DNA of 57,757 nt from an uncultured Gammaproteobacteria bacterium. Its GTDB lineage: Bacteria > Patescibacteriota > Microgenomatia > Levybacterales > UBA12049. Below are positions 12,869 to 55,873 of this stretch, in pieces; within the stretch, counting starts at the first letter, position 1, and each line of letters begins with the position of its first letter. Where the stretch lies: assembly GCA_964424775.1 (NCBI GenBank), contig CAYRJZ010000006.1, forward strand, positions 1 through 57,757, read 5' to 3'. Under the pieces are notes generated by a model. The model saw nothing but the letters and a program-made list of their open reading frames with translations. It made no database searches and was not told the DNA's origin. A program made the translations under genes and the position numbers.

Positions 12869-12944
12869 TGGGGTGGCTAACGGGGATCGAACCCGCGACA
12901 TTCAGGTCCACAACCTGACGCTCTACCACTGAGCTATAGCCACC
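12869..12944 (-). tRNA. tRNA-His(GUG) with encoded G-1 and CCA
   Basis: TCAGG-TTGTGGA-CCTGA anticodon arm; G-1:C73; encoded CCA. Confidence 0.96.
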
Positions 12945-12995
12945 ATATGAGCTGCTAAAGTATACCATATTTGAAGCTATTTATTAAATGAATGA

Positions 12996-13205: not shown

Positions 13206-13873
13206 TATGCAATTCTCCTGAGCATTGGGTCACGTGTCGGCATCATCTTTGCGATCAAAAATCCAAATACAAATCCACCAATGTGAGCAAAATACGCAAC
13301 TCCACCTTGATCAGGACTCATCCCAAATGCTCCAACTCCAGATATAACTTGTAAAACGATCCAATACCCGAGCATGAACATGGCACTCACTTCAACTATG
13401 GTAAATAAGAAGGGAAGTGTAACAAGTGTTCTGATTTTATGGTGTGGAAAGAATGCGAAATACGCACCCAACGCTCCTGCTACTGCACCGGAGGCACCGA
13501 GCATTGGAATATCTGATGTGGGATTGAGAAGATACTGTGCTAGTGACCCTACAATTCCTGATCCAATATAGAGAACAAGATAGAAAAGGGGAGGGAGTTC
13601 TCCCTCGACATTATCGCCAAATACCCACAGAAAGAGCATATTCGAGATAATGTGCAAAAATCCTCCGTGTAAAAACATAGACGTAATAAAAGGATAAAGT
13701 GTAGAAAAATCAGCAAAGTTTATTTGGGATGGGATAAGTGCGTACTTCATAACAAACCCTTCAGGATCAGGTGTTGTAATCTGAAGAAAAAAGACAAAAA
13801 CATTTATACCAATAAAAATTAAATTAAGAAATGGAAATCTCTTTGATTTCTCACTATCAGAAATTGGAATCAT
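13205..13873 (-). CDS. Rhomboid intramembrane serine protease
   Basis: FLHGGFLHIISNM, GASGAV (catalytic Ser) and AHIGG (catalytic His). Confidence 0.93.
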   Translation of the reverse strand: MIPISDSEKSKRFPFLNLIFIGINVFVFFLQITTPDPEGFVMKYALIPSQINFADFSTLYPFITSMFLHGGFLHIISNMLFLWVFGDNVEGELPPLFYLVLYIGSGIVGSLAQYLLNPTSDIPMLGASGAVAGALGAYFAFFPHHKIRTLVTLPFLFTIVEVSAMFMLGYWIVLQVISGVGAFGMSPDQGGVAYFAHIGGFVFGFLIAKMMPTRDPMLRRIA

Positions 13874-14041
13874 AAAAGTATCCTACGAAGAGATTGTAAG
13901 AAACAGATGAGAATATGTAAAGCAAATGATGTACGACTGGAGGGATTTACTACAAGGGTACAATCTTCTCCGAAGTGTCGCTTCTCATCCCGTCCGAGAA
14001 CACAACAAATCTGAAGAAAGAATCTTAAAAATTTGTGTGTG

Positions 14042-14114
14042 TACGCCTGGAGGGATTCGAACCCCCGACCACATCGTTAGAACCGATATGCTCTATCCAC
14101 TGAGCTACAGGCGC
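14042..14114 (-). tRNA. tRNA-Arg(UCU), no encoded CCA
   Basis: TATCG-GTTCTAA-CGATG anticodon arm; canonical D and T arms. Confidence 0.9.
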
Positions 14115-14216
14115 AAATTACCTTTCTATTTTAGCATAGGCACGAATTTCTTGCGAATTTACTCTCGTTGACAAAGATGTGTATGCACTTCATACTATTA
14201 GAAGAATTTCTTACAT

Positions 14217-15212
14217 ATGGCACATAAATTTTTTCTCTTTCTCCTCCGTAATCAAGTGCTTTTCGCTCTTTTCCTGATCGTCATGGGATGGTTCTTATTC
14301 CAAACACGGGGAATTCTCATGTCCATCTTTCTTGCATACATCATTAATGCTTCACTTCTTCCAGTTGTAAAATTTTTGAAAAAGAGAGGTTTCCCTAACT
14401 TTCTTGCAGCTCTCCTTCCATTCTTTGGCATTCTTATTTTTATTGTTTTGATTATCTTTCCTCTTGTTCCGTTTATTGCATCACAAGTAACATCACTTCT
14501 CACAGGCCTTCCACAGTACCTGAAAGAGTCTGGTCAGGTATTTGGATTTGATGTTAATCCAGATGGAGTAAGGTCATTTATTACAAGAGAACTAGATGGA
14601 ATAGGGAGAAATGCGTTTACAGTTACAAGTAAAGTATTTGGAGGAGTGTTTTCAACCTTAACAGTACTTGTTGTTAGTTTTTATCTCATTCTCTCGCATG
14701 ATCAATTCAAAAATAGTATCTCACATCTTTTTCATCGGTCTCAAAGACAAAGAGTTGTTGAAACACTTGAACAGGTGGATGATAAATTAGGCGCGTGGCT
14801 TCAGGGTCAACTTATCTTATCTCTCGCAATCGGAGTAATTACGTATGTTGTATTAAGCATTCTCCAGTTGCCATACGCTCTCCCACTAGCCATTCTTGCC
14901 GGAATGCTTGAGGTCATCCCGACACTCGGGCCAATTCTTGCATCTATTCCAGCAATTGTTGTTGCCCTCACTGTCTCACCAACTATGGCGATAGTTGTCA
15001 CGCTTCTTTATATCGTTATCCAGATGCTTGAGAATAATATTCTTGTTCCAAAAATTATGCAGAGAGCTGTCGGACTCAATCCAGTTATCGTCATTATAGC
15101 TGTTATGATTGGAGCAAATTTAATGGGTGTGATCGGAGCACTTCTATCAATTCCTTTTGTTTCTTTCTTAATCGTCCTCTTTAACAGTATTACGACAGAC
15201 GAAGATAAATAA
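14217..15212 (+). CDS. AI-2E/PerM family transporter
   Basis: LAYIINASLLPVV, WLQGQLIL, IPTLGPI and LENNILVPKIM...GLNP motifs. Confidence 0.9.
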   Translation: MAHKFFLFLLRNQVLFALFLIVMGWFLFQTRGILMSIFLAYIINASLLPVVKFLKKRGFPNFLAALLPFFGILIFIVLIIFPLVPFIASQVTSLLTGLPQYLKESGQVFGFDVNPDGVRSFITRELDGIGRNAFTVTSKVFGGVFSTLTVLVVSFYLILSHDQFKNSISHLFHRSQRQRVVETLEQVDDKLGAWLQGQLILSLAIGVITYVVLSILQLPYALPLAILAGMLEVIPTLGPILASIPAIVVALTVSPTMAIVVTLLYIVIQMLENNILVPKIMQRAVGLNPVIVIIAVMIGANLMGVIGALLSIPFVSFLIVLFNSITTDEDK

Positions 15213-15213
15213 A

Positions 15214-15801
15214 TTATTTTTCTGCAACTATAAGTGTCCAAGGGATAGGGTAACGAACAGTTCGAATTGTCATATACTGACTTACCATATTTTTAAATTG
15301 CCAGAATGCCCAGTGATTGATATGCTCAATATCATTCCCAAAACGTGATAAATTTTTTCCTCGCAAAAAATTACCCATCATAAAAAATGGCTCATTTGGG
15401 ACTGAAAGAAGACAATATTTCTTACTAACACGAACTAACTCTTGAAGGCCTTTTTCCGGATCATCAATATGCTCGAGTACCTCTGAACAAATAATAAGAT
15501 CGAATGAATTGTCTTTGTATTTAAGATCAAAAATTGATCCCTGCTTAAGTGTTAATTTGGGATGTTCTTTCTTCCCAAGTTCAATTGCCCGATCAAGAAA
15601 GTCCACACCTTCTAATTTTTTTCCAATTCCAGCTTTACGAATTTTTTCAAGAGTAAATCCCTCACCACAGCCAACATCCAGAATTGAATCTGGATTGATC
15701 TTTTTTACTTCCTCAAGGAGAACTGAGTTAAAATTTGCAAGAAGTTTTTTTTGAAGTGAACTTGACGTTTTGTGTTTTCGATAATTATCAGTGGTATGCA
15801 T
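15214..15801 (-). CDS. Class I SAM-dependent methyltransferase (start ATG 15801)
   Basis: ILDVGCGEG, FDLIICSEVLEH; longer track ORF overlaps tRNA-Gly. Confidence 0.88.
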   Translation of the reverse strand: MHTTDNYRKHKTSSSLQKKLLANFNSVLLEEVKKINPDSILDVGCGEGFTLEKIRKAGIGKKLEGVDFLDRAIELGKKEHPKLTLKQGSIFDLKYKDNSFDLIICSEVLEHIDDPEKGLQELVRVSKKYCLLSVPNEPFFMMGNFLRGKNLSRFGNDIEHINHWAFWQFKNMVSQYMTIRTVRYPIPWTLIVAEK

Positions 15802-15808
15802 AAAACTG

Positions 15809-15879
15809 AGCGGGTGAAGGGAATCGAACCCTCGCATTCTGCTTGGAAAGCAGATGTTCTACCATTGAACTACACCCGC
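15809..15879 (-). tRNA. tRNA-Gly(UCC), no encoded CCA
   Basis: TCTGC-TTTCCAA-GCAGA anticodon arm; U73. Confidence 0.95.
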
Positions 15880-15914
15880 GAATACAAGTTATTATAACAT
15901 TTTGACTCGTAGAA

Positions 15915-16679
15915 ATGCTAGATTTTCAAAAAATAGCGTATAATAATGATGTGTCTATAATTACTTTTTTATCATCAATTAAAAATCGTGTTTTTCAATT
16001 CCTCAGAGATACAACAAGTCCATTTACTTATGTAGCACTAGGTGATAGTACAGCTGAAGGAATGGGAGCGTCTACTCCTGAAAGAGCATACACCAATATT
16101 ATTTACTCCTCCCTCAAAGATCGTTATCGATCACCGAAATATCATAATTTTGCGCGAAGTGGTGCAATTCTCTCAGATGTTGTTGACAAACAACTTCCAA
16201 AAGCTATCGCAGAAAATCCTGATCTTATTACGATCTCTGTGGGAGCAAACGACATTATTAGACGCACCAAAACAGATGATTATGAGCGACTTCTTCGCAA
16301 ACTTCTTAAAACTCTCCACCGCGAAACTGATGCAACTATTGTCATTAGTACAGTTCCAGATCTTTCTTTTACCACAGCTGTGCCTAAAATTTTAAAAACA
16401 TACAGCCGTTATATGGCAAATAGATATAATGAGATCATTGTACGTGTTGCTGATGAAACAAATACGGTTCTCGTTGATGTCTTTAATGATAGTAAAGCAA
16501 TTCTTAAGGCATACCCAGAAGCTGTTGCAAGTGATGGGTGGCATCCATCAGATTTTGGATACGCACTGTGGGCAAATAGTGTTCTGGTCACACTTCGCAA
16601 TGTCATTGCAGCACCTGAGAGAGAAAATGTGAGTAAAGATGAGGTAGAAGACCTCACCAAAGACGACGATAAAGAATAA
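15915..16679 (+). CDS. SGNH/GDSL hydrolase
   Basis: ALGDST, GA (block II), GAND (block III), DGWHP (block V). Confidence 0.9.
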   Translation: MLDFQKIAYNNDVSIITFLSSIKNRVFQFLRDTTSPFTYVALGDSTAEGMGASTPERAYTNIIYSSLKDRYRSPKYHNFARSGAILSDVVDKQLPKAIAENPDLITISVGANDIIRRTKTDDYERLLRKLLKTLHRETDATIVISTVPDLSFTTAVPKILKTYSRYMANRYNEIIVRVADETNTVLVDVFNDSKAILKAYPEAVASDGWHPSDFGYALWANSVLVTLRNVIAAPERENVSKDEVEDLTKDDDKE

Positions 16680-16732
16680 CACTTACCTCAACTGCTTTTC
16701 CTCTGAAATAAATGTTGCTATAATCCTCCTCC

Positions 16733-17428
16733 ATGTCTATAGATGAGGTTCAAGTTCAAGATGAATATGGAATTCAAGGCGGTGAGTCTATCCACTTCTC
16801 TGAAATAGAGAATTTAAGAACACCTTTGCTTGAAATTCTGAAACAGATCAAACCAGCCATTGATTCACGAAGATACGGGATGTTAGTGAGTGATGACACG
16901 GGTGGACGAATCCCAACGATTATTCTAGGACGAACTATTAACCGGTACTATTTTAAACACGGACAACGAGCAGTCCCAAGTATATTTATCCAAGGATCAA
17001 GAAACATGAAACATCTTCCGGATATGTTAAATGCCTTTCAAAGTAGAAGTCGGGCACTATCTTCTGTTCAGCCGGATCAAAGAGCACTTCTCGTAACTGA
17101 ACACATAGGTCAAGGAATTAATTTAAAACACTTTACAACTATTTTTAATTCACTCAAACTCCCATATGATGTGGCAGCAATTGAAGCTTCTGTTTCTGAA
17201 AGAAAATACCAAATTGAAGAATGTTTGGCACAAGAGTCTCATCTCTTTGCCGGAGATTCAGATTTTAAAGCACACTTTATTGATTTCAAATATACAGGAG
17301 TAAATCCTGAAAAATACACAGGAATAAAATTTATTACCGACCCGGAAGTACGAAAATATGCTCGTGTTGCACTTCAAGATGCACGTTTAGTCAGTAATCA
17401 ACTCCTCGAGGAAATTGAGAGAATATAA
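16733..17428 (+). CDS. Hypothetical protein, possibly degenerate PRTase-like fold
   Basis: LVSDDTGGRIP and ALLVTEHIGQG resemble phosphoribosyltransferase motifs; weak. Confidence 0.5.
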   Translation: MSIDEVQVQDEYGIQGGESIHFSEIENLRTPLLEILKQIKPAIDSRRYGMLVSDDTGGRIPTIILGRTINRYYFKHGQRAVPSIFIQGSRNMKHLPDMLNAFQSRSRALSSVQPDQRALLVTEHIGQGINLKHFTTIFNSLKLPYDVAAIEASVSERKYQIEECLAQESHLFAGDSDFKAHFIDFKYTGVNPEKYTGIKFITDPEVRKYARVALQDARLVSNQLLEEIERI

Positions 17429-17433
17429 AGATG

Positions 17434-17507
17434 TCGGGGACAAAGGACTTGAACCTTCGACCTCACGGTCCCAAACCGCGCGCTCTAGCCAACTGAGCTA
17501 GTCCCCG
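17434..17507 (-). tRNA. tRNA-Pro(UGG), no encoded CCA
   Basis: CGGGGAC acceptor; GCGG-TTTGGGA-CCGT anticodon arm. Confidence 0.95.
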
Positions 17508-17518
17508 AAATATTCTGG

Positions 17519-17604
17519 TGGTGCCGCGGGGGGGACTCGAACCCCCACGTCCTTGCGAACAAGGGCTCTTAAGGCCCCCGTGTATACCATTTCACCACCG
17601 CGGC
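17519..17604 (-). tRNA. tRNA-Leu(UAA) with encoded CCA
   Basis: GGGGC-CTTAAGA-GCCCT anticodon arm, long variable arm, ACCA end. Confidence 0.93.
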
Positions 17605-26136: not shown

Positions 26137-26165
26137 TTGACTCCCGAGTGATATTTCATTAATAT
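26137..26165 (+). promoter_or_regulatory. Sigma70 promoter TTGACT-17-TAATAT
   Basis: Near-consensus hexamers with 17-bp spacer, about 300 nt upstream of ATG 26468. Confidence 0.75.
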
Positions 26166-26184
26166 CTGCTCAGTGGGTATTAAC

Positions 26185-26205
26185 AGCCGACCGTCAGCGG
26201 AGGCA
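26185..26205 (+). promoter_or_regulatory. Leader motif copy 1 (AGCCGACCGTCAGCGGAGGCA)
   Basis: 18/21 identical to the minus-strand copy at 35255-35275; contains a CCG-N4-CGG hairpin. Confidence 0.7.
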
Positions 26206-26334
26206 AGTAGTTCAGTTTTTCCTAAAACTAACTACATCAGGCAACATCCCGAGAAGTGCACTAACAGCTGAATATATATTTGTATGCTCATTACCTGCCC
26301 GGTATCATACTGTCATTTGGTTGAAAATAACACT

Positions 26335-26377
26335 AACCCCTTATATCCGGTGTTGGAGGGATATGAGGGGTTTTTTT
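26335..26377 (+). terminator. Intrinsic terminator inside the 5' leader (attenuator candidate)
   Basis: 12-bp stem CCCCTTATATCC/GGATATGAGGGG followed by T7, between promoter and first gene. Confidence 0.8.
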
Positions 26378-26467
26378 GTGCTCAGAACCCCTCTCTCATT
26401 ATGTCCCGAGTTGAAGAATAATAAGAGGGGGGAGAATTTATCCTACCTATGAAAGGAGGTGAAAATA

Positions 26468-28108
26468 ATGAAATATACAAAACAATTTTTAGGAAGTTTT
26501 ATAGCAACAATTGCACTTTTTGCAGTAGTTCTCAGTCCAGTTACAGCTGACACACATACTGTAAGTTTTGAAAACCCTCCATATAATCCAGGGAATATTA
26601 ATGGTCAAGATAGTTGGACCAAAACTGGAACATATGATTCAGAAGTTGAAACAAATACGTATGGCTTTGCTTCATTCGGATCACAAACACTGCGTATCTC
26701 GAATGCAGTAACATCTGGAGCATTTGGGGATCAAACTTTTGCAAAACCTCTTTCTAATGGAGTTGGAGAAACAATCGCAACAAGCGGTTCATTTCTACCA
26801 GGAACCCGCCAAACAAAATTTGAGATGGAGTTTGATATTGCTTCTGCAATACCTACTGCTCAACAACCCGGCTTATTTCTCTCAATTTCTCCAGATAGGG
26901 GGGATGGATCTCGAATGAGTTACCTTGGCTTTGAAGATGTTTCTGGTGGTATTAAAGTGATATTTTATGATGTTCAAGGTACCTCTAATCCAGCAAATTT
27001 TGTTTTAACAGACTTAGGGACATACTCGAGAACTGAGACTCATAACATAAAGCTATCTTTAGACGCAGTTGAAGGCCCATCAAATGATGTAGTTAAAGTA
27101 TGGATTGACGATGTTCTTAAACATACAGGAACTAGCTGGGAAAACTATTATAGATATGATGCAGAAGCAAATGCAGAACAAACACCTAGAATAATAAAGA
27201 CAGTCTTGTTCCGTTCAGGAGGTACAGCTGTACCTGCTAATTTTGGAAACGGTTTTCTATTTGATAATGTGACTCTCACATCTTCTACGCCAGTAACATC
27301 TGTTAGTGGTGAAATTACAAACCCAGCAACTGATGGAGCTACTGTTAGCGGGATTTACAACTTTACAGCTACTTATGACGATGGTGACGAAGTAGATGAC
27401 GACGCTGTTCAATGGGCGATTCGCCAAGGAGCATGTAACGCTACAACAGCAACCTTATTCGGAAATGTAGATGGTCACAGTGACACATTTACATGGGATG
27501 GAGACTCATTCAGTACAACTCAAGACACAACTGGACTAACACCAGGCCAATACTGTTTCGTTTTCAACCCAACTGATGATGCCGGACAAAATGATGTTCG
27601 TGAACTTCGAACATTTATCATTGAAGAACCAGCTAATCCTTATGCAGTTCCTCTTGCTTGTCAAGGGAACGACGTCACCTATGGAACACCAATTGTTGGA
27701 ACTGAAGGCTCAGATAAAATCAGTGGAACATCTGGAAACGACCTTATATTCGCTCTTGGCGGATCAGACAAGGTCGATGGAAAAGGTGGACATGATTGTA
27801 TCGTTGGAGGAGCCGGAAGCAACAAGATTGATGGAGGCTCTGGAAATGACGTCATACTCGGAGGAGATAATTCAGACTCAATCGATGGAGGAAGTCATAA
27901 CGATAAAGTCTATGGTATGGGTGATAGCGATAGCTTAAAAGGAGGCTCTGGAGTTGACGAACTTTGGGGAGGAGATGGTGGCGATTCACTAAGTGGTGAC
28001 GCTGGAAACGACATACTTCGAGGTGAAGACGGTATTGACTCAGCCAAAGGTGGATCAGGAAATTCTGATAACTGTATCGCAGAATCAGAAAAGACATGTG
28101 AAATCTAA
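26468..28108 (+). CDS. Secreted protein with C-terminal RTX/hemolysin-type Ca-binding nonapeptide repeats
   Basis: Sec signal (…SPVTA), SD AAAGGAGG, about 12 GGxGxD-like repeats from GTEGSD to GGSGNSD. Confidence 0.8.
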   Translation: MKYTKQFLGSFIATIALFAVVLSPVTADTHTVSFENPPYNPGNINGQDSWTKTGTYDSEVETNTYGFASFGSQTLRISNAVTSGAFGDQTFAKPLSNGVGETIATSGSFLPGTRQTKFEMEFDIASAIPTAQQPGLFLSISPDRGDGSRMSYLGFEDVSGGIKVIFYDVQGTSNPANFVLTDLGTYSRTETHNIKLSLDAVEGPSNDVVKVWIDDVLKHTGTSWENYYRYDAEANAEQTPRIIKTVLFRSGGTAVPANFGNGFLFDNVTLTSSTPVTSVSGEITNPATDGATVSGIYNFTATYDDGDEVDDDAVQWAIRQGACNATTATLFGNVDGHSDTFTWDGDSFSTTQDTTGLTPGQYCFVFNPTDDAGQNDVRELRTFIIEEPANPYAVPLACQGNDVTYGTPIVGTEGSDKISGTSGNDLIFALGGSDKVDGKGGHDCIVGGAGSNKIDGGSGNDVILGGDNSDSIDGGSHNDKVYGMGDSDSLKGGSGVDELWGGDGGDSLSGDAGNDILRGEDGIDSAKGGSGNSDNCIAESEKTCEI

Positions 28109-28172
28109 TAGTCCTATCTATTAGCGTTTGCCGAATCGTAGATCGAGATTTTTTGAAAGGAGGTGAAATAAA

Positions 28173-28775
28173 ATGACAAATTTAAAACTTAAAATTGCTT
28201 CAGCTGCTGCAACAGCTGGACTCTTAGCAACATCTTTTGCTCCTGCAGCTTTTGCAGACACAGTTGTTGTTAAAGGAAATGGTGCTGACTCAACAAATAA
28301 AGTTAAGGTCAATAAAAAGACCAAGACTAAAGTTTCCCAAACAAACAACACAGCTGTTGTAAATCTCGTTGGTGTTATGCAAAACACTGGGGGAAATACA
28401 GCAAATAAAAATACAGGTGGAGATGTAACAGTTGGTAGTGGTGATGCCACTGCAACAGTGACAAATACAACAAAAACTGGGAACAACTCCGCAACTGTAA
28501 CAGGTTGCCCTTGTGAAGATAGTGATGACACTATCCGAATCAGTGGTAATGGTGCTGACTCAACGAATAAAGTTAAGTCAAACACTAAGACTAAAACAGT
28601 AGTCAGTCAGACCAATAATACACTTGTAGTCAATGGTGTTCTTGTTGCCCAAAACACAGGCGACAATCACGCTAATAAAAATACAGGTGGCGATGTTGAT
28701 GTAGATTCAGGAGAAGCAGATGCAACTGTTGAGAATACTACTACAACTGGTGCAAATACCGTTACTCTCGAGTAA
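28173..28775 (+). CDS. Secreted N/T/G-rich repeat protein (2 repeats), fibre-subunit candidate
   Basis: Signal peptide (…PAAFA); two GNGADS...QNTGxNxANKNTGGDVxVxSG units. Confidence 0.8.
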   Translation: MTNLKLKIASAAATAGLLATSFAPAAFADTVVVKGNGADSTNKVKVNKKTKTKVSQTNNTAVVNLVGVMQNTGGNTANKNTGGDVTVGSGDATATVTNTTKTGNNSATVTGCPCEDSDDTIRISGNGADSTNKVKSNTKTKTVVSQTNNTLVVNGVLVAQNTGDNHANKNTGGDVDVDSGEADATVENTTTTGANTVTLE

Positions 28776-28802
28776 GGTATAAATAACTTCTAGAAGGACA
28801 AG

Positions 28803-28841
28803 ACCCTGCCCGGCGTTGTCGACAAACGCAGCAGGGTTTTT
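28803..28841 (+). terminator. Intrinsic terminator with bulged long stem
   Basis: ACCCTGC...GCGTT/AACGC...GCAGGGT followed by T tract. Confidence 0.75.
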
Positions 28842-28924
28842 GTTTGAGAAAAGAAGACGTTATGGAGAATGACTGACTTTTCTTACTTTATTTTTATATT
28901 CAAAATCTATAGTATATATTTGCC

Positions 28925-29404
28925 ATGAGAAATCTTATCTATCCAGCATTACTTGTTATTACTGCACTTAGTTTTTCCTCAATTGCTCAGACTGAGGCAA
29001 AGACCTCAATCAATATCTCCAATAATTCTGATGGAGAAGACACAAGTATTAAAGTGAATAGTAATACGTCGACGTCTCAATCTACCTCAGTAAGTAGCAC
29101 AAGCGGCACAACGAGTGTCAGAATTGAAAATAATGGGGAAGTAAAAACGTTTGAGACCAAGGCAAATGAAGACTTTCACTATTCTTCAGACGATGGAAAG
29201 ACTAATATCGATATAGATTCATCAGCTGTTGTTAAAGAGAACGACACAGTTGTCACAGATGATAATAACGATGAAAAAGAAAAAAAGACAAATAAAACTG
29301 AAGTAAATAAAAAGCCTACAGAAGCTGAAAAAGCAGAAGTGAAATCATTTGTTGATTCACTTGTGAGCTCAATCCAAAGCTTCTTTTCTTCATTTTTTAA
29401 TTAA
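28925..29404 (+). CDS. Secreted Ser/Thr/Asp-rich protein
   Basis: Signal peptide, low-complexity core, amphipathic Phe-rich C-terminus. Confidence 0.65.
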   Translation: MRNLIYPALLVITALSFSSIAQTEAKTSINISNNSDGEDTSIKVNSNTSTSQSTSVSSTSGTTSVRIENNGEVKTFETKANEDFHYSSDDGKTNIDIDSSAVVKENDTVVTDDNNDEKEKKTNKTEVNKKPTEAEKAEVKSFVDSLVSSIQSFFSSFFN

Positions 29405-29462
29405 CCCGATCTCTTGACAAACACTGCAATTTCTTCCACTATTAGTTAAGAAAGGAGGATAA

Positions 29463-29621
29463 ATGGCAAAAAAGAAATCTGTCCCACTCCATAAACGAGG
29501 ATATCATAAAAAACTTGAAGAGCCAGTTCATAACCTTGTTGGATATGGAGCGCTTTTATTGTTAGCTCTTATTGTCCTTATTATGGTGTATAGTCTTCAG
29601 TGGTTTATGGTCAAACCATAA
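29463..29621 (+). CDS. Unannotated 52-aa single-TM protein (MAKKKSVPLHKRGYHKK...WFMVKP)
   Basis: SD AAAGGAGG, upstream TTGACA at 29414-29419, basic N-terminus plus TM; below ORF-track cutoff. Confidence 0.65.
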   Translation: MAKKKSVPLHKRGYHKKLEEPVHNLVGYGALLLLALIVLIMVYSLQWFMVKP

Positions 29622-29622
29622 A

Positions 29623-30180
29623 TTACTTCATATCTGCAAAGATAAGAAGTCTTTTCCAGTCTGTGCCAATTGGTGTGCATGTTTGAAGAATCAGATGATG
29701 TTTTGATTCTTTCAGAAGATAGTTAACTTCTGTGGGAAAGACTTCTTTTTTATTTTTTACTAAGTACGAATATTCTTTCCCCTCATACATAATTTTTATG
29801 TGATCATTAAGTTTCAGCTCGTTTAAGCGTAGAAAAACTGAGTTGTATCTTGTAATTTCCCAAGGCATTCCGGATGAATGAGCAAAGAGAAATATTGTTC
29901 CGTTTTCCCCAGGAAGTGACGTATTTTTTGCATGCGCAATTCCACGTTTCAGTGCCCCCATGTACTCGTCCCTATTAAATGGATCGACATTTTTAAGAAC
30001 AATACCTTCTGCTTTAATTGTAGGTATTACTAATGTAAATGATTGTGATTTTTCTTGTGCAGTAAGCTGTCGTGGAAAAAAATATGCACTCAGGACTGGA
30101 TAAAAAATTAAAACAAAACCGAAAAGTGAGGCAATAATAAGAATTGTTCCCAAATAATAAGAAATTGAACGCTTTTTCAT
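29623..30180 (-). CDS. Sortase (start probably ATG 30180)
   Basis: N-terminal TM; His (FAHSS), Cys (LQTCTP) and Arg (KRLL) triad. Confidence 0.92.
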   Translation of the reverse strand: MKKRSISYYLGTILIIASLFGFVLIFYPVLSAYFFPRQLTAQEKSQSFTLVIPTIKAEGIVLKNVDPFNRDEYMGALKRGIAHAKNTSLPGENGTIFLFAHSSGMPWEITRYNSVFLRLNELKLNDHIKIMYEGKEYSYLVKNKKEVFPTEVNYLLKESKHHLILQTCTPIGTDWKRLLIFADMK

Positions 30181-30216
30181 AAGGAGAATATTATAAGACA
30201 AGCATGTATTGAAAGC

Positions 30217-30240
30217 AAAAAAAATCCCCCGAAGGGGATT
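30217..30240 (-). terminator. Intrinsic terminator after the LPATG protein
   Basis: AATCCCC-TTCG-GGGGATT followed by T tract on the minus strand. Confidence 0.85.
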
Positions 30241-30243
30241 TCA

Positions 30244-31359
30244 CTATGCAAGTACAAAACCTGGTGACCTTCCGGATCTCAGTCTTAACACCGCACCAAA
30301 GAGGAGCATCAATAGATTGCCTAGAATAGCTAATAAGATCCAAGGATTTCCAGTAGCTGGAAGTACCTCACCAGTTGTTGTACCGAGTACACTGCCACCT
30401 GTTGGGTTGCTACCTCCAGTTGGATTGGTAGGTCCATTACCACCTGTTGGTGGATTTTCTGGCTCTTCAGGTTTTTCTGGTTCTTCAGGCTCTTCAGGTT
30501 CTTTATCACAGTTACAGTCAACTTTTACGACATTGTCGTTAATGTTATTCTCAATAAGAGCATCAAGGTCAATATCACCAGTTTTGATACTAACATCCCC
30601 GTTATTATCATCAGCAGTATTTTCACCTGTAAATAAGTTCCAGACACTATTATTGAAAATATCTGCGATATTATTTACGTTTACATTATTAACAGAATTA
30701 TTAAAGAAATTAACGTTATTAATACTCCCTGCGCCATTACCAGTGATGATAAGTGAAATACCGCCAAATGCTGATGTATTAAGCTGAACATAGGAACTGT
30801 TGACGTTATTAACAATCTTCTCACTTACTTTAATATTTCCTGTTTGAATTGAAACATTTCCACTATTTCCATTTGCAGTATTTCGACCAGTAATTGCTGT
30901 TCCATACACATTTGTTGTCACATGAGCTGTATTTGTAACAGTGACATTATTAGTAGTATTTGATCCATAATTAATTGTGTTGTTGGATTCAGAACCATTT
31001 CCAGAAATTTCCGCGGTACCTCCAGCAGACTGGCAACATCCTGTTTCAACATGTGACTGATTGAGTGTGTTGTTTACTTGAGTTGCTGTTGAAGAATCAC
31101 CCGATGAAATATTTGTATTCCCACCAGTGTTATCTGATGCTGAATTATCTCCAGTACTGCTGTTCGTTGTAACATCATTTGTGACTTCTGCTGTGTTATT
31201 CTGCTGGACTGTCGTGTTATTTGATGTCGTAACACTGATATCACTATTTGAACCACTTCCGTTTCCAGAAATGCTCAATTCTTCAGCTTGTACCGTTTTA
31301 ACTGATAAAGGCAAAACAGTTGCTGTTACTAATGCCAATAGTATTTTTTGTTTTTGCAT
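30244..31359 (-). CDS. Secreted N/G/T/S-rich repeat protein (3 repeats) with LPATG sorting signal
   Basis: Signal peptide, GNGSGS repeats, EPEEPE/PTGG linker, VLPATG + TM + RLR tail. Confidence 0.85.
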   Translation of the reverse strand: MQKQKILLALVTATVLPLSVKTVQAEELSISGNGSGSNSDISVTTSNNTTVQQNNTAEVTNDVTTNSSTGDNSASDNTGGNTNISSGDSSTATQVNNTLNQSHVETGCCQSAGGTAEISGNGSESNNTINYGSNTTNNVTVTNTAHVTTNVYGTAITGRNTANGNSGNVSIQTGNIKVSEKIVNNVNSSYVQLNTSAFGGISLIITGNGAGSINNVNFFNNSVNNVNVNNIADIFNNSVWNLFTGENTADDNNGDVSIKTGDIDLDALIENNINDNVVKVDCNCDKEPEEPEEPEKPEEPENPPTGGNGPTNPTGGSNPTGGSVLGTTTGEVLPATGNPWILLAILGNLLMLLFGAVLRLRSGRSPGFVLA

Positions 31360-31430
31360 AAAGTACTAAAAGTGTATACTTTTTTCTCTATTTACTGTTA
31401 GAGAAAATACAGAGGCAGATTATTTAATTG

Positions 31431-33614
31431 TTAGGCAGTTCGTCTATTGAGTACAAATCTTCGACTGAGATATGCACCTGCGAGGACAGGAAGCAGGAGC
31501 ATAGCCCAAGCTAAATTAATTCGAATGACATTTCTTTTTGCTGCATCAACAACAGAGTATGAAGCACCTTTCACTTGTGGTGTAGGCTGTGCAGAACCAT
31601 TACTATCAGTTAGGACAGCAACGTTTCCATTTCCGGTGTTCTGTGATGTAACAGTGTTGTTTGCATCTCCACTCCCGACAAGTGCAATTGTTTTTTGTTG
31701 TGTAACGACTGTTGGAGTAGGGGTAGGTACAGATTTGGTAGTTTCATTATTATCACTAGCTCCACCAATGTTATTACTATTATTTTGTGCTTGTGCAGTA
31801 TTTTCTTTTTTCTGACCAGGAGTTACGAAGTCGCCAAGCCAACTTCCAAAGACATTGACGACGGTTACGACGAGCTTACCGTTGCCTGCTATGTTGTTAT
31901 TAACAAAGTTCACCATGTTCGCTACGATATTAGCATCTCCAGTTGTGATATTAGAGTTGCCACCTGTATTTTTACTTGTGCTATTACCACCTGTGTTAGC
32001 TGAAAGATTTAGGTTGTTTACAATATCTGCATTATTGTCTTGAACAGTTGTTGAGTTATTGGTAACACTTGATGATGCGTCATTTGTTGATCCTGCACCA
32101 TTGCCAGTATTGGTAACGGTGATAAAGCCATTTTCATCAATAGTGTAGTCTGTACCTTGCACAGCTGCAAACTTTGTTCCCTCAGGTGCACCCATTATTT
32201 TACCCATCCAGTTACCAGCTTCATTGACAAGAACTATCCACCAATTACCGCCTGCAAGATTCATGTTCGCAATGTTAAGAACATTCGCGTCGATATTTGT
32301 ATCACCTGTTTTAATAGTACTGTTGCCACCAGTGTTATCACTTGCTGAGTTCTCACCAGTTGACGCATCAAAGATAAGATTGTTAGTAATATTTGCATCA
32401 TTCTCCTGGAATGTATTTGTATTATTTGTCGTTGATGAATTTGCTGTATTTGTAGAGCCAGAGCCATTCCCTGAATTAAGTGCTGTTGTTCCAAGTGCAT
32501 CAAATTGTGATTCGTCAAAGATAAGGTCCCCGATAAGATCACCAAAGATATTGACGACACCAAAGACTACATTTCCAGCGAGATTGTTGTTCGCAAAGGT
32601 AAGAACATTCGCTGCAACGTTTGCATCACCTGTCTCAATATTTGAGTCTCCACCTGTGTTTTTATTTGCCGTGTTATTACCTGAATCTGCTGAGAGATTT
32701 AAGTCGTTACCAATAAGTGCATCGTTCATTTGATACGTATTACTGTTATTTGTTACATCAGTATCAGCAGTGTTCTCACTGTCAACACCGTTTCCAGTGT
32801 TTCCTGCAAAGAGACTTCCCGTGCCACCACATCCTGAGACGCATGCAGCTCCAAAGTCAAGAACAATATCTCCAACATGATCATCAACGACATTGAATTC
32901 TGAGACCATAATTCCATCAGCATTCGTGTTAACGGATGTGATAACAGTTCCTGTTGTATTAGCATCACCAGTATTAATAGATGAATCTCCAACATTTTTA
33001 GAAGTGTCATTCTGACCGGTTACTGTTGCACCTGTAAGATTACTATTTACAACAGCTGCGTTATTTTGATACGTATTATCATTATTGACGACAGCCGCGG
33101 AACCGTTATTTGTTGAGTCTGCGCCATTACCAGAGTTAACAACGGTTGCTCCAGAACCTGACGTTCCTGCAGGAGATGTAGATGTATTGTTGTTACCTGC
33201 TGTAGAAATAATTCCTGATGATACAGCATCACCAGTCTTGACTTCGCTTGAACCGACCTGTCCGCTTTGCTGTTCATTTGCTGCAGCTTGTGTTGGAGTA
33301 GGGGTAGGAGTTGATTTCGTAGATGATGATTCTGTATTACTATTTTGCTCTTCAACTTCTTCTTGTTCTTCCTCTTCATCATCACTGTCATTATTTTGAA
33401 CATCACTAACAGCCTGTTCTACTGTTGGTGCAGTTGGCGCTGTTGGAGCACTTGGTGCTGTCGGTGCTGCAGGAGCTGTTGGAGCACTAGGCGCTGTAGG
33501 TGCAGTTGGCGCTGTTGGAACTTCCTGAGCGAATACTCGTGCTGGAACAGTATGAACTGTTACCATCATGAAAATTATAAAGTATGCAGTAATTTCTTTT
33601 AATATATTTGTCAT
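31431..33614 (-). CDS. Large secreted repeat protein (about 4 repeats) with C-terminal TM anchor
   Basis: Signal peptide, (APT)n linker, GNGxxS...NTGG...TGDA repeats, QVKGAS motif, TM and RR tail. Confidence 0.85.
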   Translation of the reverse strand: MTNILKEITAYFIIFMMVTVHTVPARVFAQEVPTAPTAPTAPSAPTAPAAPTAPSAPTAPTAPTVEQAVSDVQNNDSDDEEEEQEEVEEQNSNTESSSTKSTPTPTPTQAAANEQQSGQVGSSEVKTGDAVSSGIISTAGNNNTSTSPAGTSGSGATVVNSGNGADSTNNGSAAVVNNDNTYQNNAAVVNSNLTGATVTGQNDTSKNVGDSSINTGDANTTGTVITSVNTNADGIMVSEFNVVDDHVGDIVLDFGAACVSGCGGTGSLFAGNTGNGVDSENTADTDVTNNSNTYQMNDALIGNDLNLSADSGNNTANKNTGGDSNIETGDANVAANVLTFANNNLAGNVVFGVVNIFGDLIGDLIFDESQFDALGTTALNSGNGSGSTNTANSSTTNNTNTFQENDANITNNLIFDASTGENSASDNTGGNSTIKTGDTNIDANVLNIANMNLAGGNWWIVLVNEAGNWMGKIMGAPEGTKFAAVQGTDYTIDENGFITVTNTGNGAGSTNDASSSVTNNSTTVQDNNADIVNNLNLSANTGGNSTSKNTGGNSNITTGDANIVANMVNFVNNNIAGNGKLVVTVVNVFGSWLGDFVTPGQKKENTAQAQNNSNNIGGASDNNETTKSVPTPTPTVVTQQKTIALVGSGDANNTVTSQNTGNGNVAVLTDSNGSAQPTPQVKGASYSVVDAAKRNVIRINLAWAMLLLPVLAGAYLSRRFVLNRRTA
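33421..33520 (-). repeat. 9-bp-unit coding tandem repeat (PTA/PSA/PAA)n
   Basis: Encodes VPTAPTAPTAPSAPTAPAAPTAPSAPTAPTAPT. Confidence 0.8.
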
Positions 33615-33645
33615 AATTTTTAAAATATTATTTATTTAATTTCTA

Positions 33646-33700
33646 TATAAGAGTGTGGGGTGCTAATGGAAGTGCTCATCGACACCCCACAGTTCTTATA
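33646..33700. other. Long intergenic stem-loop between first and second repeat-protein genes
   Basis: TATAAGA-TGTGGGGTG pairs with CACCCCACA-TCTTATA; no U tract. Confidence 0.7.
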
Positions 33701-33702
33701 TC

Positions 33703-34938
33703 TTAGTTGTTACTAGCCCACCAAGACATGAACATACTCCACATGTTTAAATTCATGTCGAAGTCAAAGTCAAAGTCTGGAAGGTCAGCTGAGCCGATAA
33801 CGTTTTGGTTGCCTGCGTTTTTAACAGTAACCTCAGCATCTGAGTCTCCAGTTTCGATAGATGGATCAGAGATCGCATCTACTTCTCCTGTGTTGTCATC
33901 TGCATCGTTATCGCCTGTATCTCCGTCAACGTCGAGATCATTGTCGAGATCTGAATAGTTATCTTGGAAAAGACTTGCAGTCTCATCAAAGTTACCATAG
34001 ATATCGTTGTCTGAATCTGAACCGTTTCCGTTGATCTTTGCGAGTACGTCAAAGACGCATCCGCATCCTGCATCTGCAGCGTTAAAGTTAACCATGTTGT
34101 CAACTGTAACATCAGCATCAGCATCACCTGTGTCGATCATTACATCGCCACCTGTGTTGTCGTCTGCAGAATTGTCGCCTGTATCAGCATCTACGTCAAC
34201 GTCGTTATCAACATCTGCATTGTTATCTTGTGTGAGAACGAGTGCATTGTCGAAGTTGAGGTCGATTTCGTTGTCTGAATCAGAGCCGTTTCCGAGGATG
34301 TATGCTGAAACGAGTCCAGCTTCATCATCACCACCACCTACAACTGCTGAATTTGCATTAGCAGCTGTCATGATTTTAACGGTTGTGTCAGCGTCACCAG
34401 TTTCGATTTCTACATCTCCACCAGTGTTGTCATCTGCATCGTTGTCCCCAGTTTCTGCGTCAACGTCAACGTCGTTGTCGACATCAGCGTTGTTGTATTG
34501 GAAGACATTAGTTGTTGAATTGTTAGAAAGGTCTACATCATTATCTGAATCAGAACCATTTCCTGAAATAACAACCTTTGTATCACCAGTACAATTACCG
34601 CATCCACTTACATCAGCAGCATTACTATTAAGCTGGTTTTTGACTGTAACATTTGTTGAAGCATCACCTGTGTTAACTTTTACATTACCACCTGTGTTAC
34701 CTGAAGCTGAGTTATCGCCAGTTGTAGCGTTAACAGTTACGTTATTACTAACGTTAGCTGTGTTGTTTTGAACAACGTTAAGTGAACTTGATTGTGAAAC
34801 ATTTGCAGTATTGTTAGATCCTGATCCGTTTCCAGAAAGAGTGATCTCAGTAGCTGCAAGTGTCATTGGAGCTAAAGCATGGAGTAAGACTGATCCGGTT
34901 GCGATAGCTGTTGCGATTCGTGTTTTGTAATTTGTCAT
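33703..34938 (-). CDS. Secreted Asp/Asn-rich repeat protein (4 repeats of about 89 aa), major-subunit candidate (start ATG 34938)
   Basis: SD AAAGGGGG; signal peptide similar to that of 28173; four GNGSxS...Q.N.A.V.N.V...TGDNxAxxNTGG...TGDA units. Confidence 0.85.
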   Translation of the reverse strand: MTNYKTRIATAIATGSVLLHALAPMTLAATEITLSGNGSGSNNTANVSQSSSLNVVQNNTANVSNNVTVNATTGDNSASGNTGGNVKVNTGDASTNVTVKNQLNSNAADVSGCGNCTGDTKVVISGNGSDSDNDVDLSNNSTTNVFQYNNADVDNDVDVDAETGDNDADDNTGGDVEIETGDADTTVKIMTAANANSAVVGGGDDEAGLVSAYILGNGSDSDNEIDLNFDNALVLTQDNNADVDNDVDVDADTGDNSADDNTGGDVMIDTGDADADVTVDNMVNFNAADAGCGCVFDVLAKINGNGSDSDNDIYGNFDETASLFQDNYSDLDNDLDVDGDTGDNDADDNTGEVDAISDPSIETGDSDAEVTVKNAGNQNVIGSADLPDFDFDFDMNLNMWSMFMSWWASNN

Positions 34939-35036
34939 TATATTTGTCACCCCCTTTCTTGACTATGATTCCGTTTCCACCAAATGGTGAATTGGGCACT
35001 TCATCCGCTTTCCTGTCTAAGGCCTGAGGCTTGGAC

Positions 35037-35092
35037 AAAAAAACGGAAACATATCCTTCTAAATTACTTAGGAAGATGTGCTTCCGCTTTTT
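35037..35092 (-). terminator. Second leader terminator (attenuator candidate)
   Basis: GCGGAAGCACATCTTCCTAA/TTAGAAGGATATGTTTCCGT imperfect stem followed by T7. Confidence 0.75.
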
Positions 35093-35215
35093 GAGTTCTT
35101 TTTTGTTGTAATAAATTACTTGTATTCATTTGAGTTATTAAGATAATCGATTTCTTTTTGTGTTCTCTGTAAGGTTTCTCACATCCTTACAATCTATTTA
35201 CAAAACATTGTCCAC

Positions 35216-35258
35216 AAAAAAAGGCACCGTCATTTCTAATCATTTAGAAATAGGTGCC
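35216..35258 (-). terminator. First leader terminator, overlapping the leader motif
   Basis: GGCACC-ATTTCTAA/TTAGAAAT-GGTGCC followed by T7; 5' arm begins inside the GGAGGCA of the motif. Confidence 0.8.
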
Positions 35259-35275
35259 TCCGTTTACGGTCAGCT
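35255..35275 (-). promoter_or_regulatory. Leader motif copy 2 (AGCTGACCGTAAACGGAGGCA)
   Basis: 18/21 identical to 26185-26205. Confidence 0.7.
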
Positions 35276-35318: not shown

Positions 35319-35347
35319 AATATAATTGAATAAAAAATGTATGTCAA
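35319..35347 (-). promoter_or_regulatory. Sigma70 promoter TTGACA-17-TATATT
   Basis: Near-consensus promoter immediately downstream of the YezD-like gene. Confidence 0.75.
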
Positions 35348-35356: not shown

Positions 35357-35554
35357 TTATATTTTTACAGTATGCCCATTAGGAATATGTGAATTTGTCT
35401 TTTTGATATTGCGCTCTGTAATTTGAACAACTTTATAGTCCTGTACGTAGATCTCGACGCTTCCCCAACCGCGGATATTATTTAATGCTTCAACAATTTC
35501 TGCAATAAGTTCAGGACTAATTTTATTCATTGTCTTAGTTGTCTTTGTATTCAT
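35357..35554 (-). CDS. YezD/DUF2292-like small protein (alternative start 35530)
   Basis: IVEALNNIRGWGSVEIYVQDYKVVQITERN matches the recalled DUF2292 pattern (I..I..GSVEI.VQDG.V.QI). Confidence 0.7.
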   Translation of the reverse strand: MNTKTTKTMNKISPELIAEIVEALNNIRGWGSVEIYVQDYKVVQITERNIKKTNSHIPNGHTVKI

Positions 35555-35586: not shown

Positions 35587-36204
35587 CTACTTAGTAAGAT
35601 TTAACTTAATTGTTTCTTTCTTACCTGTAAGTTCACCTACAAGAAGAGTAAGATTTTTATCTGAATCATTTATTGGGAATCCAAGTCGAGTTGGTTTGGT
35701 TGAGTCAGCTAAAATCTCAACAGGGTCGTTATGAATATCTGCTGCAATTTTTTCGCTACTATTATTAACTGTCAATCGAACATAATCTCGTGCATTTACA
35801 GCGATCGTTTTATTATATGAGTTCGTAATTTTAGCATTGAGAATTAAAAATGTTCTTCCTTCAACAGAGATTGCTCTTTTTCCTTTTACAATAACTTCGT
35901 CACGAATTTCAGCATTTTCAAGGACAAATTTTAATTTACTTACTTCTTTTCCATTCGTGTCTTTAAGTGAGAATTCGTATGTTTTATTAAGATTTTGGGT
36001 TGCTTCTGGTTTGGCAATTGTTACTTTTGTACTATTATCACCAACTGCAATTGTTTCTTTATTACTATTTGCAACTGCGAAGAAAAGTGCACCTAAAATT
36101 AGAAGAGCTGCGATAAGTCCTGGGAAGAAAAACTTTTGTCGAGTAATTTTTTTGTAGTCAAATTTATGTAATGAGTGATCCATATCTATAAAAAAACTCT
36201 GCAA
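35587..36204 (-). CDS. Membrane-anchored Ig-fold protein, possibly DUF4352-like
   Basis: TM followed by FLILNAKITN and V.I.ADST...LGF patterns. Confidence 0.55.
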   Translation of the reverse strand: MQSFFIDMDHSLHKFDYKKITRQKFFFPGLIAALLILGALFFAVANSNKETIAVGDNSTKVTIAKPEATQNLNKTYEFSLKDTNGKEVSKLKFVLENAEIRDEVIVKGKRAISVEGRTFLILNAKITNSYNKTIAVNARDYVRLTVNNSSEKIAADIHNDPVEILADSTKPTRLGFPINDSDKNLTLLVGELTGKKETIKLNLTK

Positions 36205-40541: not shown

Positions 40542-40634
40542 ACATAAAGAGTTCCACTACTTAGTGGACAGCAACCGGCATAACGCGGTGCTCTCGTCGG
40601 AAGGACGTATGTGACTGAAACAACAGTATATTAT
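40542..40634 (+). ncRNA. SAM-I/IV-type riboswitch aptamer
   Basis: P1 ACAUA/UAUGU, J1/2 AAGAG, P3 AGCAACC/GGUGCU, P5 ACUG/CAGU, possible PK2 AUAA/UUAU; directly upstream of metK. Confidence 0.75.
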
Positions 40635-40635
40635 C

Positions 40636-40660
40636 AACCTTCCATATGGAAGGTTTTTTT
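40636..40660 (+). terminator. Riboswitch expression-platform terminator
   Basis: AACCTTCC-ATAT-GGAAGGTT plus T tract ending immediately before ATG 40661. Confidence 0.8.
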
Positions 40661-41770
40661 ATGAAAAATAAAACAACATTTACGTCTGAATCTGTGTGTG
40701 CAGGACACCCAGATAAAATTTGTGATCAAATTAGTGATGCAATTGTTGATGCAGTTTTGGCACAAGATCCTTTTGGCCGAGTTGCTCTCGAAAGCCTTGC
40801 TGCTAATAATCATATTGTCTTAGCAGGTGAGGTAACTTCTACTGCACACATAAACTTTGAGGAAATTGCACGTTCGGAAATAAAAAGACTCGGATATGTC
40901 GATCCCGAGTCTGGATTTAGTTATAGATCGCCTCTAGAAAATTATGTTCATGAACAATCACCTGAAATTGCACGTGGAGTTAAGAAAAAAGGAGCGGGAG
41001 ATCAAGGTATGATGTTTGGTTTTGCATGCACAGAGACAAATTCACTGATGCCACTTCCCATAACTCTCGCACACGAACTTGCAAAAACAATAGACAAAGT
41101 AAGAGAAGACAAGACCCTTTCATATCTTCGACCTGATGGAAAAAGTCAGGTAACAGTTGCTTATGAGAATGGCAAACCAGTAGAAGTTACGAAAGTAGTT
41201 GTAGCCGTACCTCATAATGAAAGTATTTCTCTTGAGCGCGTAAAGAGGGATCTTTACAAGTATGTCATTACTCCTGTTCTCAAAGAAGAAGGCTTTCATA
41301 TAAGTGAAAACGACATTACAGTTAATGGAACAGGGGTCTGGCATAAGGGAGGTCCTGCTTCTGACTCAGGGCTCACAGGACGAAAAATTGTCGTAGATAC
41401 GTATGGAGGATATGCACGAGTGGGTGGGGGAGCGTTCAGCGGAAAAGATCCTACAAAAGTAGATCGCTCAGGTGCCTATGCAGCCCGCTTCCTGGCAAAA
41501 AATCTTGTAGCACATGGACTTTGTGAAAAAGCGGAAGTTCGTCTTGCATATGCAATTGGCATTCGCAAACCGTTAATGCAGGATATAGAGACATTTAACA
41601 CTGAAAAAGTAAGTAAAAAAGCACTCTTAGATTTTATGAAGAAACTGCTGGACACATCTGTTGAAGGGATAATTGATGGACTTGATTTGAGGCGTCCGCT
41701 CTATAAAAGTACCGCAGCCTATGGTCACTTCGGAAAAAAAGGCCTTCCTTGGGAAAAAATTGTAAAATAA
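40661..41770 (+). CDS. metK: S-adenosylmethionine synthetase
   Basis: FTSESV..GHPDK, GAGDQG, LRPDGKSQV and GGGAFSGKDPTKVDRS motifs. Confidence 0.97.
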   Translation: MKNKTTFTSESVCAGHPDKICDQISDAIVDAVLAQDPFGRVALESLAANNHIVLAGEVTSTAHINFEEIARSEIKRLGYVDPESGFSYRSPLENYVHEQSPEIARGVKKKGAGDQGMMFGFACTETNSLMPLPITLAHELAKTIDKVREDKTLSYLRPDGKSQVTVAYENGKPVEVTKVVVAVPHNESISLERVKRDLYKYVITPVLKEEGFHISENDITVNGTGVWHKGGPASDSGLTGRKIVVDTYGGYARVGGGAFSGKDPTKVDRSGAYAARFLAKNLVAHGLCEKAEVRLAYAIGIRKPLMQDIETFNTEKVSKKALLDFMKKLLDTSVEGIIDGLDLRRPLYKSTAAYGHFGKKGLPWEKIVK

Positions 41771-55843: not shown

Positions 55844-55873
55844 AAAATCAGGCAGAGAAGTGGAAATACGATG

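Follow-up and report, generated by a model that had tools for sequence, protein, structure and literature searches.

A conserved leader hairpin overlapping an intrinsic terminator, and its probable role as an antiterminator ahead of repeat-protein operons in Microgenomates

We describe a short RNA motif that heads both operons of a repeat-protein locus in contig CAYRJZ010000006.1 (assembly GCA_964424775.1; GTDB lineage Patescibacteriota, Microgenomatia, Levybacterales, UBA12049) and that recurs in the leaders of orthologous operons throughout the Microgenomates. The whole contig, 57,757 nt read on the forward strand, is referred to as the window, and coordinates are window positions unless stated otherwise. 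The motif folds into a hairpin of about 27-33 nt that consists of a covarying lower stem (P1), a GA/A internal loop, an invariant 3-bp CCG/CGG upper stem (P2) and a YNNA tetraloop. In most leaders the 3' arm of this hairpin doubles as the 5' arm of an intrinsic terminator, and the hairpin is very probably an antiterminator in leaders where termination is the default.

Conservation and structure of the leader hairpin

The two window copies are AGCCGACCGTCAGCGGAGGCA on the plus strand (copy 2, 26185-26205), which folds as GCC-GA-CCG-UCAG-CGG-A-GGC, and AGCTGACCGTAAACGGAGGCA on the minus strand (copy 1, 35275-35255), which folds as GCU-GA-CCG-UAAA-CGG-A-GGC, the fold common to both being GCY-GA-CCG-N4-CGG-A-GGC. 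The initial annotation of this DNA, made from the sequence alone, had placed the copies at 26185 (+) and 35275 (-) with 18 of 21 positions identical, and we confirmed both the coordinates and the identity. Its statement that the window holds no further copy also stands, as a degenerate pattern allowing up to three mismatches matched just these two sites in 57.7 kb, with 0.00 expected from 100 dinucleotide shuffles. A sigma70-type promoter had been read upstream of each copy, and these are TTGACT-17-TAATAT at 26137..26165 (+) and TTGACA-17-TATATT, with 11 of 12 consensus matches, at 35319..35347 (-). The CCG-N4-CGG hairpin is indeed kept in both copies, but the stem change that accompanies it converts C-G (plus) into U-G (minus), not U-A into U-G. 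Both copies carry U at loop position 1, where most genomes carry C. When scored with our covariance model, R1, the minus copy reached 39.1 bits (E 5.7e-8) and is overlapped by a terminator, and the plus copy, with a P1 of 3 bp and no overlapping terminator, reached 26.6 bits (E 2.9e-4) and is the weakest instance of the motif. The idea that the same functional unit heads both operons consequently holds for the motif itself and not for the overlapping terminator, which the plus copy has lost.

An alignment of homologs of the 415-aa protein encoded first in the minus operon provided 80 loci (L001-L080) from GTDB species genomes of Levy-, Davies-, Woese-, Gottesman-, Roizman-, Chisholm-, Curtiss- and Shapirobacteria, with upstream sequence for 78 of them. 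The check proposed at the outset, to collect orthologous leaders and build a covariance model, found the motif to be conserved: it is present in 66 of the 78 leaders, always in the sense orientation and 90-370 nt before the start codon, with the consensus rrGCUGACCGCAAACGGAGGCUUyu. R1 returned 76 matches at E<1e-3 in 867 kb, every one of them within a leader, and the next best match scored 15 bits. In an alignment of 75 sequences, the CCG/CGG stem and the A and GG that follow it appear invariant, G11 and A12 are conserved in at least 90% of the sequences, and A23 is invariant or nearly so; the flanking sequence is neither alignable nor conserved. Most orthologous loci have a TTGACA-type promoter ahead of the motif, with 5-100 nt between the motif and the -10 element.

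The lower stem varies by compensatory change. Pair 7-27 is AU in 37 sequences, UA in 13, GU in 11 and GC in one, pair 6-28 is AU in 26, UA in nine, GU in nine and GC in seven, and the innermost pair, 10-24, is UG in 52 and CG in 23. The resulting P1 variants include AAGCU/GGCUU, GAGCU/GGCUC, UUGCU/GGCAA, GUGCU/GGCAC, UUACC/GGUAA, AAACC/GGUUU and UUUCU/GGAAA, and 83% of the P1 cells are paired. The covariation score of 0.239 was reached in 0 of 500 shuffles, which scored 0.143, and controls with the pairing slid out of register stayed at or below 0.16; RNAalifold independently predicted the same hairpin. Because P1 covaries and uses U·G pairs, we regard the motif as an RNA element and not a DNA site. 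The earlier interpretation as a cis-acting RNA site is thereby strengthened, given the conservation among orthologs, the covariation of P1 with G-U pairs, the constant strand and the variable distance to the promoter. The conserved unpaired part is small, comprising the GA/A internal loop and, in part, the first and last positions of the tetraloop, and the spacing between bulge and loop is fixed at 3 bp. Such a pattern, with few conserved unpaired nucleotides and a fixed bulge-loop spacing, is characteristic of hairpins bound by proteins and ill suited to a metabolite pocket.

Overlap with the terminator and the proposed mechanism

According to a tolerant automatic criterion, 63 of the 66 primary copies, among them the minus copy of the window, have an intrinsic terminator that uses the 3' arm of the hairpin as its 5' arm; the remaining three are borderline cases. 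In almost all orthologs AAACGGAGGCuucuc…, which forms the 3' half of the hairpin, base-pairs with …gagGAGCCUCCG located 30-60 nt downstream and followed by a U tract, and the predicted free energies are -20 to -40 kcal/mol for the terminators versus -7 to -12 kcal/mol for the hairpin. In the window, the corresponding terminator T1 (GGAGGCACC...GGUGCC + U7; 35214..35260, -) has a 5' arm, GGCACC, that starts within the minus motif copy and overlaps the P1 3' arm, with -19 kcal/mol against -7 for the hairpin of this copy. Where P1 changes, for example to UUACC/GGUAA, the 3' arm of the terminator changes with it (UUUACCUCC), and therefore both alternative pairings are maintained.

A group of leaders that we call class B, which includes that of the window's minus copy and those of L009, L012, L013, L030, L041, L048, L049, L059 and L072, has a different terminator (GGCAYCC…GGRUGCC followed by a U run), which again overlaps P1. 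Further downstream these leaders contain an "orphan" terminator that begins with AAAACGGARRC, a string shared with the 3' half of the motif; such second terminators (T2) were found in L004, L009, L012, L013, L041, L049, L059 and L072. An overlap that is either kept or rebuilt is what one expects if the function of the element is mutual exclusion.

By inspection, no sigma70-like promoter was seen between T1 and the gene in the motif-bearing loci, and expression therefore depends on read-through. Since the hairpin is weaker than the terminator, the antiterminator would need outside help. Under the mechanism that we propose, the hairpin, close to the 5' end of the leader, and the terminator would be mutually exclusive, as the 3' arm of the former (…AAACGGAGGC…) is the 5' arm of the latter. 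Left alone, the terminator would win and transcription would stop about 60-110 nt after its start. A trans-acting factor would recognize the invariant bulge together with P2 and keep the hairpin from opening during the passage of RNA polymerase, which would then read through into the surface-protein genes, following the logic of antitermination by ribonucleic antiterminator (RAT) sites and BglG-type proteins. We lean towards this complete account, in which the stabilization of the weak hairpin by a factor is the step that we infer from the observed conservation, structure and terminator overlap. As for the nature of the factor, a protein is the likeliest option, and we put its prospects at about even.

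The best candidate for this factor, proposed tentatively, is the product of a gene at 35357..35554 (-) that ends 10 bp upstream of the minus promoter. It encodes a 65-aa cytoplasmic protein of the DUF2292 (YezD/OscA) type, which scored 29.9 bits against Pfam PF10055 (gathering cut-off 22) and is thus a member of this family; its score against the NCBIfam OscA equivalog model is weak (21 bits versus a cut-off of 85), so it is not an OscA ortholog. The protein has a very conserved core, NIRGWGSVEIYVQDxKVVQITERNIKKT, and a basic tail. The order DUF4352-like membrane protein, DUF2292, promoter, motif is conserved in the neighbourhood. The first of these genes (35587-36204, -) encodes a 205-aa single-pass membrane protein with a DUF4352-like beta-sandwich recognized by eye and no Pfam hit; it is conserved in 78 of the 80 loci, which makes it the most constant neighbour of the repeat-protein operon. 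When the 80 loci were searched with a DUF2292 profile, motif and gene occurred together in 66 and were both missing from 12 (two of these at contig edges), with DUF2292 alone in L022 and the motif alone in L037. In addition, four metagenome contigs (L106, L136, L150 and L159) carry DUF2292 directly upstream of the motif though their secreted-protein cargo differs. It is possible, if at present doubtful, that DUF2292 mini-proteins are RNA-binding antiterminators with the hairpin as their recognition site, the two together forming a master switch of a Microgenomates surface regulon. Searches with the DUF2292 protein returned only close Patescibacteria relatives, no plasmid homologs were found, and there was no sequence match in the PDB. 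We also noted, at positions 4636-4668 of locus L057, a motif-like hairpin (CUCCC-AA-CCG-CAAU-CGG-A-GGG) that includes the Shine-Dalgarno (SD) sequence of the DUF2292 gene. Although a hairpin over this site hints at translational control, autoregulation of DUF2292 was rejected, as the arrangement was seen in only one of 68 loci.

Several observations weigh against the proposed mechanism or against the role assigned to DUF2292. The motif and the DUF2292 gene are adjacent, so a single deletion removes both and the link between them could be plain synteny; a tree of the neighbouring gene requires only two independent co-losses if well-supported branches alone are considered, and seven in its best version, and is too poorly resolved to prove many independent events. 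The AlphaFold2 model of the DUF2292 protein (a helix and a beta-hairpin; predicted local distance difference test score 66) gave no significant Foldseek match to an RNA-binding or any other fold, all E-values being above 2. The apparent invariance of the core is inflated, as instances were gathered with a pattern that required it; still, 68 of the 75 match perfectly. Not every copy overlaps a terminator: the window's plus copy and five of eight secondary copies do not, and three of the eight do. Class B leaders have a second, non-overlapping terminator, and another terminator stands ahead of the sortase gene inside the minus operon. A switch that acts only locally would therefore leave part of the observations unexplained. 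Possible readings are a decay of the secondary copies, an additional processive action of the bound hairpin, or a second role of the hairpin such as 5' stabilization. Finally, metatranscriptome runs gave one or two single-read contigs covering the 5' untranslated region and the start of the gene, which are uninformative on termination.

Known systems and alternative explanations

A scan of the window with Rfam 15 at the gathering threshold detected only ten tRNAs, with no SAM family reported at 40542-40663, ahead of metK (40646-41770), and at E<=10 the two leaders gave only spurious eukaryotic or plastid matches, located on the terminators. The element had been described as matching no nameable family, and the lack of any Rfam match to either leader bears this out. 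Pfam scans of 60 window open reading frames (seven short ones lay outside the scan) revealed no CAT_RBD, PRD, ANTAR or NusG/KOW domain, and the conserved neighbourhood (the DUF4352-like membrane protein and DUF2292) likewise has no NusG/KOW or CAT-PRD protein. In our literature searches nothing useful was found on the function of DUF2292, YezD or OscA, on RNA motifs of the Candidate Phyla Radiation (CPR), or on the literal motif sequence.

Among known systems, RAT sites and their BglG, SacY and LicT proteins are similar in that the leader begins with a small hairpin, interrupted by internal loops, that overlaps the 5' arm of the terminator with its 3' side and, being weaker than the terminator, needs a bound protein to win. 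The likeness to RAT that had been suggested is therefore apt where this overlap exists, in the minus copy and in 63 of 66 orthologous leaders, and not for the plus copy, which lacks it. In sequence and shape, however, the two are unrelated. The upper stem of the present element has 3 bp, its internal loop is GA/A and it is closed by a tetraloop, and GCY-GA-CCG-YNNA-CGG-A-GGC does not match the RAT consensus with its two asymmetric internal loops. Moreover, the locus contains neither a CAT/PRD protein nor phosphotransferase-system or sugar genes; the genes downstream encode surface proteins, and the 65-aa DUF2292 protein is the candidate binder. The targets of ANTAR proteins (EutV, AmiR, NasR) are similar in that a protein-stabilized hairpin competes with a terminator, but they comprise two tandem hairpins with hexaloops (A1, G4), whereas the present element has one hairpin only, its loop measures 4 nt, and no ANTAR protein was seen. 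This is a new RNA motif that uses a known regulatory logic, RAT/BglG-like in its working and not a member of that family.

A different use of a short 5' leader hairpin is known from lambda boxB/nut with N, from HK022 put and from the LoaP hairpin, where it is linked to terminator read-through ahead of long operons. A processive antiterminator of this kind, in which the hairpin, with or without a factor, would modify RNA polymerase so that all downstream terminators are read through, would accommodate the two terminators of class B leaders, the window's plus copy 130 nt from its terminator and the terminator ahead of the sortase gene, since extra non-overlapping terminators suit a processive mode. 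It would also fit a cargo of long surface-structure operons, as with RfaH, UpxY and LoaP. We nevertheless judge it improbable, because a processive site needs neither the terminator arm shared by 63 of 66 primary hairpins nor an overlap rebuilt in class B, and because neither the window genes that were scanned nor the conserved neighbourhood include a NusG-paralog, KOW or N-like gene. The initial comparison with boxB/nut is not supported: the tetraloop is a YNNA with variable positions 2-3 and not a GNRA-like pentaloop, the boxA-like string that follows the -10 box in the window is not conserved outside this genome, and most motif copies physically overlap their terminator. A riboswitch would share the antiterminator/terminator architecture of the mechanism we propose. 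Here the hairpin would be a minimal aptamer for a small molecule or metal ion whose binding stabilizes P1 and blocks the terminator, giving an ON switch; the existence of motif copies without a neighbouring DUF2292 gene would also be accounted for. A divalent cation, Ca2+ or Mg2+, is a conceivable ligand: the internal loop consists of tandem purines, the cargo is Asp-rich and RTX-like, and the regulated genes encode acidic repeat proteins, among them an RTX protein, that probably bind Ca2+. The element resembles small-aptamer ON riboswitches such as preQ1-I and guanidine-II in its compactness, its place in the 5' leader and the sharing of the P1 3' strand with the terminator. Against this, the hairpin offers only about three conserved unpaired nucleotides outside its helices, and its loop varies, which leaves very little for a selective pocket; there is no Rfam riboswitch match, and neither ligand-related genes nor any logic of metabolic or transport genes is apparent. 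We regard a riboswitch as unlikely.

The leader might, alternatively, contain no sensor at all and act as a constitutive attenuator, as the source of a small RNA of about 60-110 nt, or as a STAB-SD-like 5' hairpin that stabilizes the mRNA. A strong promoter followed at once by a very strong terminator, the SD-like GGAGG within the motif and the extra 5' hairpins of several leaders would all be compatible with this. The chances of such an arrangement appear slim, as no sigma70-like promoter was seen between T1 and the gene in motif-bearing loci, so that expression needs read-through. Moreover, one would hardly expect the unpaired GA bulge to be conserved in several candidate phyla, or the 5' arm to covary only so as to pair with the shared segment, unless a regulated alternative structure were involved. 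Much the least plausible is a DNA operator, in which the CCG-N4-CGG palindrome would be bound by a transcription-factor roadblock. Although the motif is a short inverted repeat downstream of promoters, 52 of 75 instances have a U·G pair in P1, which at the DNA level would be a T·G mismatch; its halves are asymmetric, its strand is constant, and its distance to the -10 element varies from 5 to 100 nt. Leader-peptide attenuation was rejected, as no start codon is conserved after GGAGG.

The two operons, further motif copies and a possible surface regulon

The minus leader consists, in this order, of the promoter, an AU-rich hairpin, the motif, T1, T2, a GAAGUGC element with a small hairpin and a strong SD sequence. 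The AU-rich 5' hairpin (P0; 35276..35303, -) is predicted directly before the motif; its sequence is not conserved, yet several relatives have a 5' hairpin at the same place. T2 (AAAAAGCGGAAGC...GUUUCCGUUUUUUU; 35034..35092, -; fold z = -4.35) is the counterpart of the ancestral "AAACGGAGGC" terminator arm found in class A leaders, with the adjacent 5' half absent. Its CGGAAGC could pair with GCUGACCG, the motif's 5' half (with U-A instead of U-G), and a long-range antiterminator is therefore conceivable. The proximal element at 34978..35002 (-), GAAGUGC (34996-35002) followed by a short hairpin, precedes the SD sequence GGGGGUGA and the ATG at 34938. This second conserved leader element, GAAGUGC, then a variable GC hairpin, then SD, occurs in nearly all L001-L080 leaders, about 60-110 nt before the start codons and also in loci that lack the motif. 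Loci that lack both the motif and DUF2292 express the homolog from another promoter arrangement, which is proximal (ACTCTTAC … TAAGAT-N7-GAAGTGC), with GAAGUGC 7 nt after the TAAGAT -10-like box and about 45 nt after the conserved ACTCTTAC. In L009, L030 and L048, GAAGUGC lies 1-2 nt ahead of the DUF2292 start codon, which has no SD sequence. The element may be a transcription start or a processing site.

The first gene of the minus operon (33703..34950, -) encodes the 415-aa secreted Asp/Asn/Gly repeat protein, whose true start is likely the ATG at 34938; the protein has 795 homologs, the named ones being from Microgenomates. The rest of the operon (29623..33614, -) comprises genes for 727-aa and 371-aa (LPATG) repeat paralogs, the terminator mentioned above (30242-30221, -) and a sortase (PF04203; 29623-30201, -). 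Between the genes for the 415-aa and 727-aa proteins, a GUGGGGUG…CACCCCAC hairpin without U tract (33630-33690, -) may be a 3' stabilizer or a processing signal that sets the subunit ratio.

On the plus strand, a predicted hairpin without U tract lies immediately 3' of motif copy 2 (26207..26235, +) and may be a decayed terminator; the intrinsic terminator of this leader, 130 nt 3' of the motif (26335..26379, +), does not overlap it. The operon (26459..28775, +) encodes a 549-aa secreted RTX-repeat protein, likely starting at ATG 26469, and a 200-aa two-repeat paralog (28173-28775, +), and ends in a terminator at about 28804-28845 (+). In relatives the motif heads the 200-aa paralog directly; in the window the RTX gene stands between them. 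The string yTGCTCAkTrrGTA is common to both window leaders directly after the -10 box (26166-26184, +; 35318-35300, -) and resembles boxA (UGCUCUUUAACAA); it has no match in the leaders of relatives, including the closest ones, L004 and L009, and may reflect an exchange between these two leaders within the genome. A MAFFT alignment of the two leaders did not bring the motif into register and found similarity in the promoter-proximal part only. Elsewhere in the window, the ten tRNA genes detected by Rfam stand singly between protein genes, 1-1.6 kb apart and not clustered (1-70, 12872-17604 and 54267-57757, -).

Further copies extend the range of genes that the motif precedes. Where an orthologous locus contains a second copy, this copy lies ahead of the 200-aa paralog. 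When metagenomes were scanned with the commonest 15-mer of the motif, about three-quarters of the matches were due to chance, on high-GC contigs, and about 29 were genuine, on low-GC contigs; a scan of viral sequences with the motif pattern returned chance matches only. Downstream of the motif in L109 (at 4032) lie genes for a membrane protein, family 2 (GT2) and family 4 (GT4) glycosyltransferases, a polysaccharide deacetylase-like protein, a second GT4 and a large membrane protein. In L120 (motif at 958) the motif is followed by genes for two TasA-like proteins (AYFSDTE signal), a SipW-like signal peptidase, a homolog of the 549-aa protein and the 200-aa paralog, and in L178 by genes for a 389-aa secreted protein, the DUF4352-like protein and DUF2292. 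The cargo of all three contigs has envelope or secreted functions, and this variety points to a surface regulon. Several metagenome copies have no adjoining DUF2292 gene, and copies apart from this gene fit a factor that acts in trans.

Gene regulation in the CPR is little established; these bacteria are uncultured and have tiny genomes with few recognizable regulators. The element described here is a compact, sequence-defined switch present across at least eight Microgenomates candidate phyla, ahead of genes that most probably build the outer surface, the interface with hosts and the environment, and the covariance model can be used to map its regulon in any CPR genome. It also offers a testable handle in the form of a 30-nt RNA, a switch of roughly 90 nt and a 65-aa candidate protein. 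If the DUF2292 protein does bind the hairpin, this would be the first function for DUF2292, a domain of unknown function found in many phyla. The regulon would then cover beta-solenoid repeat fibres, sortase substrates, TasA/SipW-like fibres and glycosyltransferases, and would represent a surface-regulon circuit for this CPR group of which we found no description in the literature.

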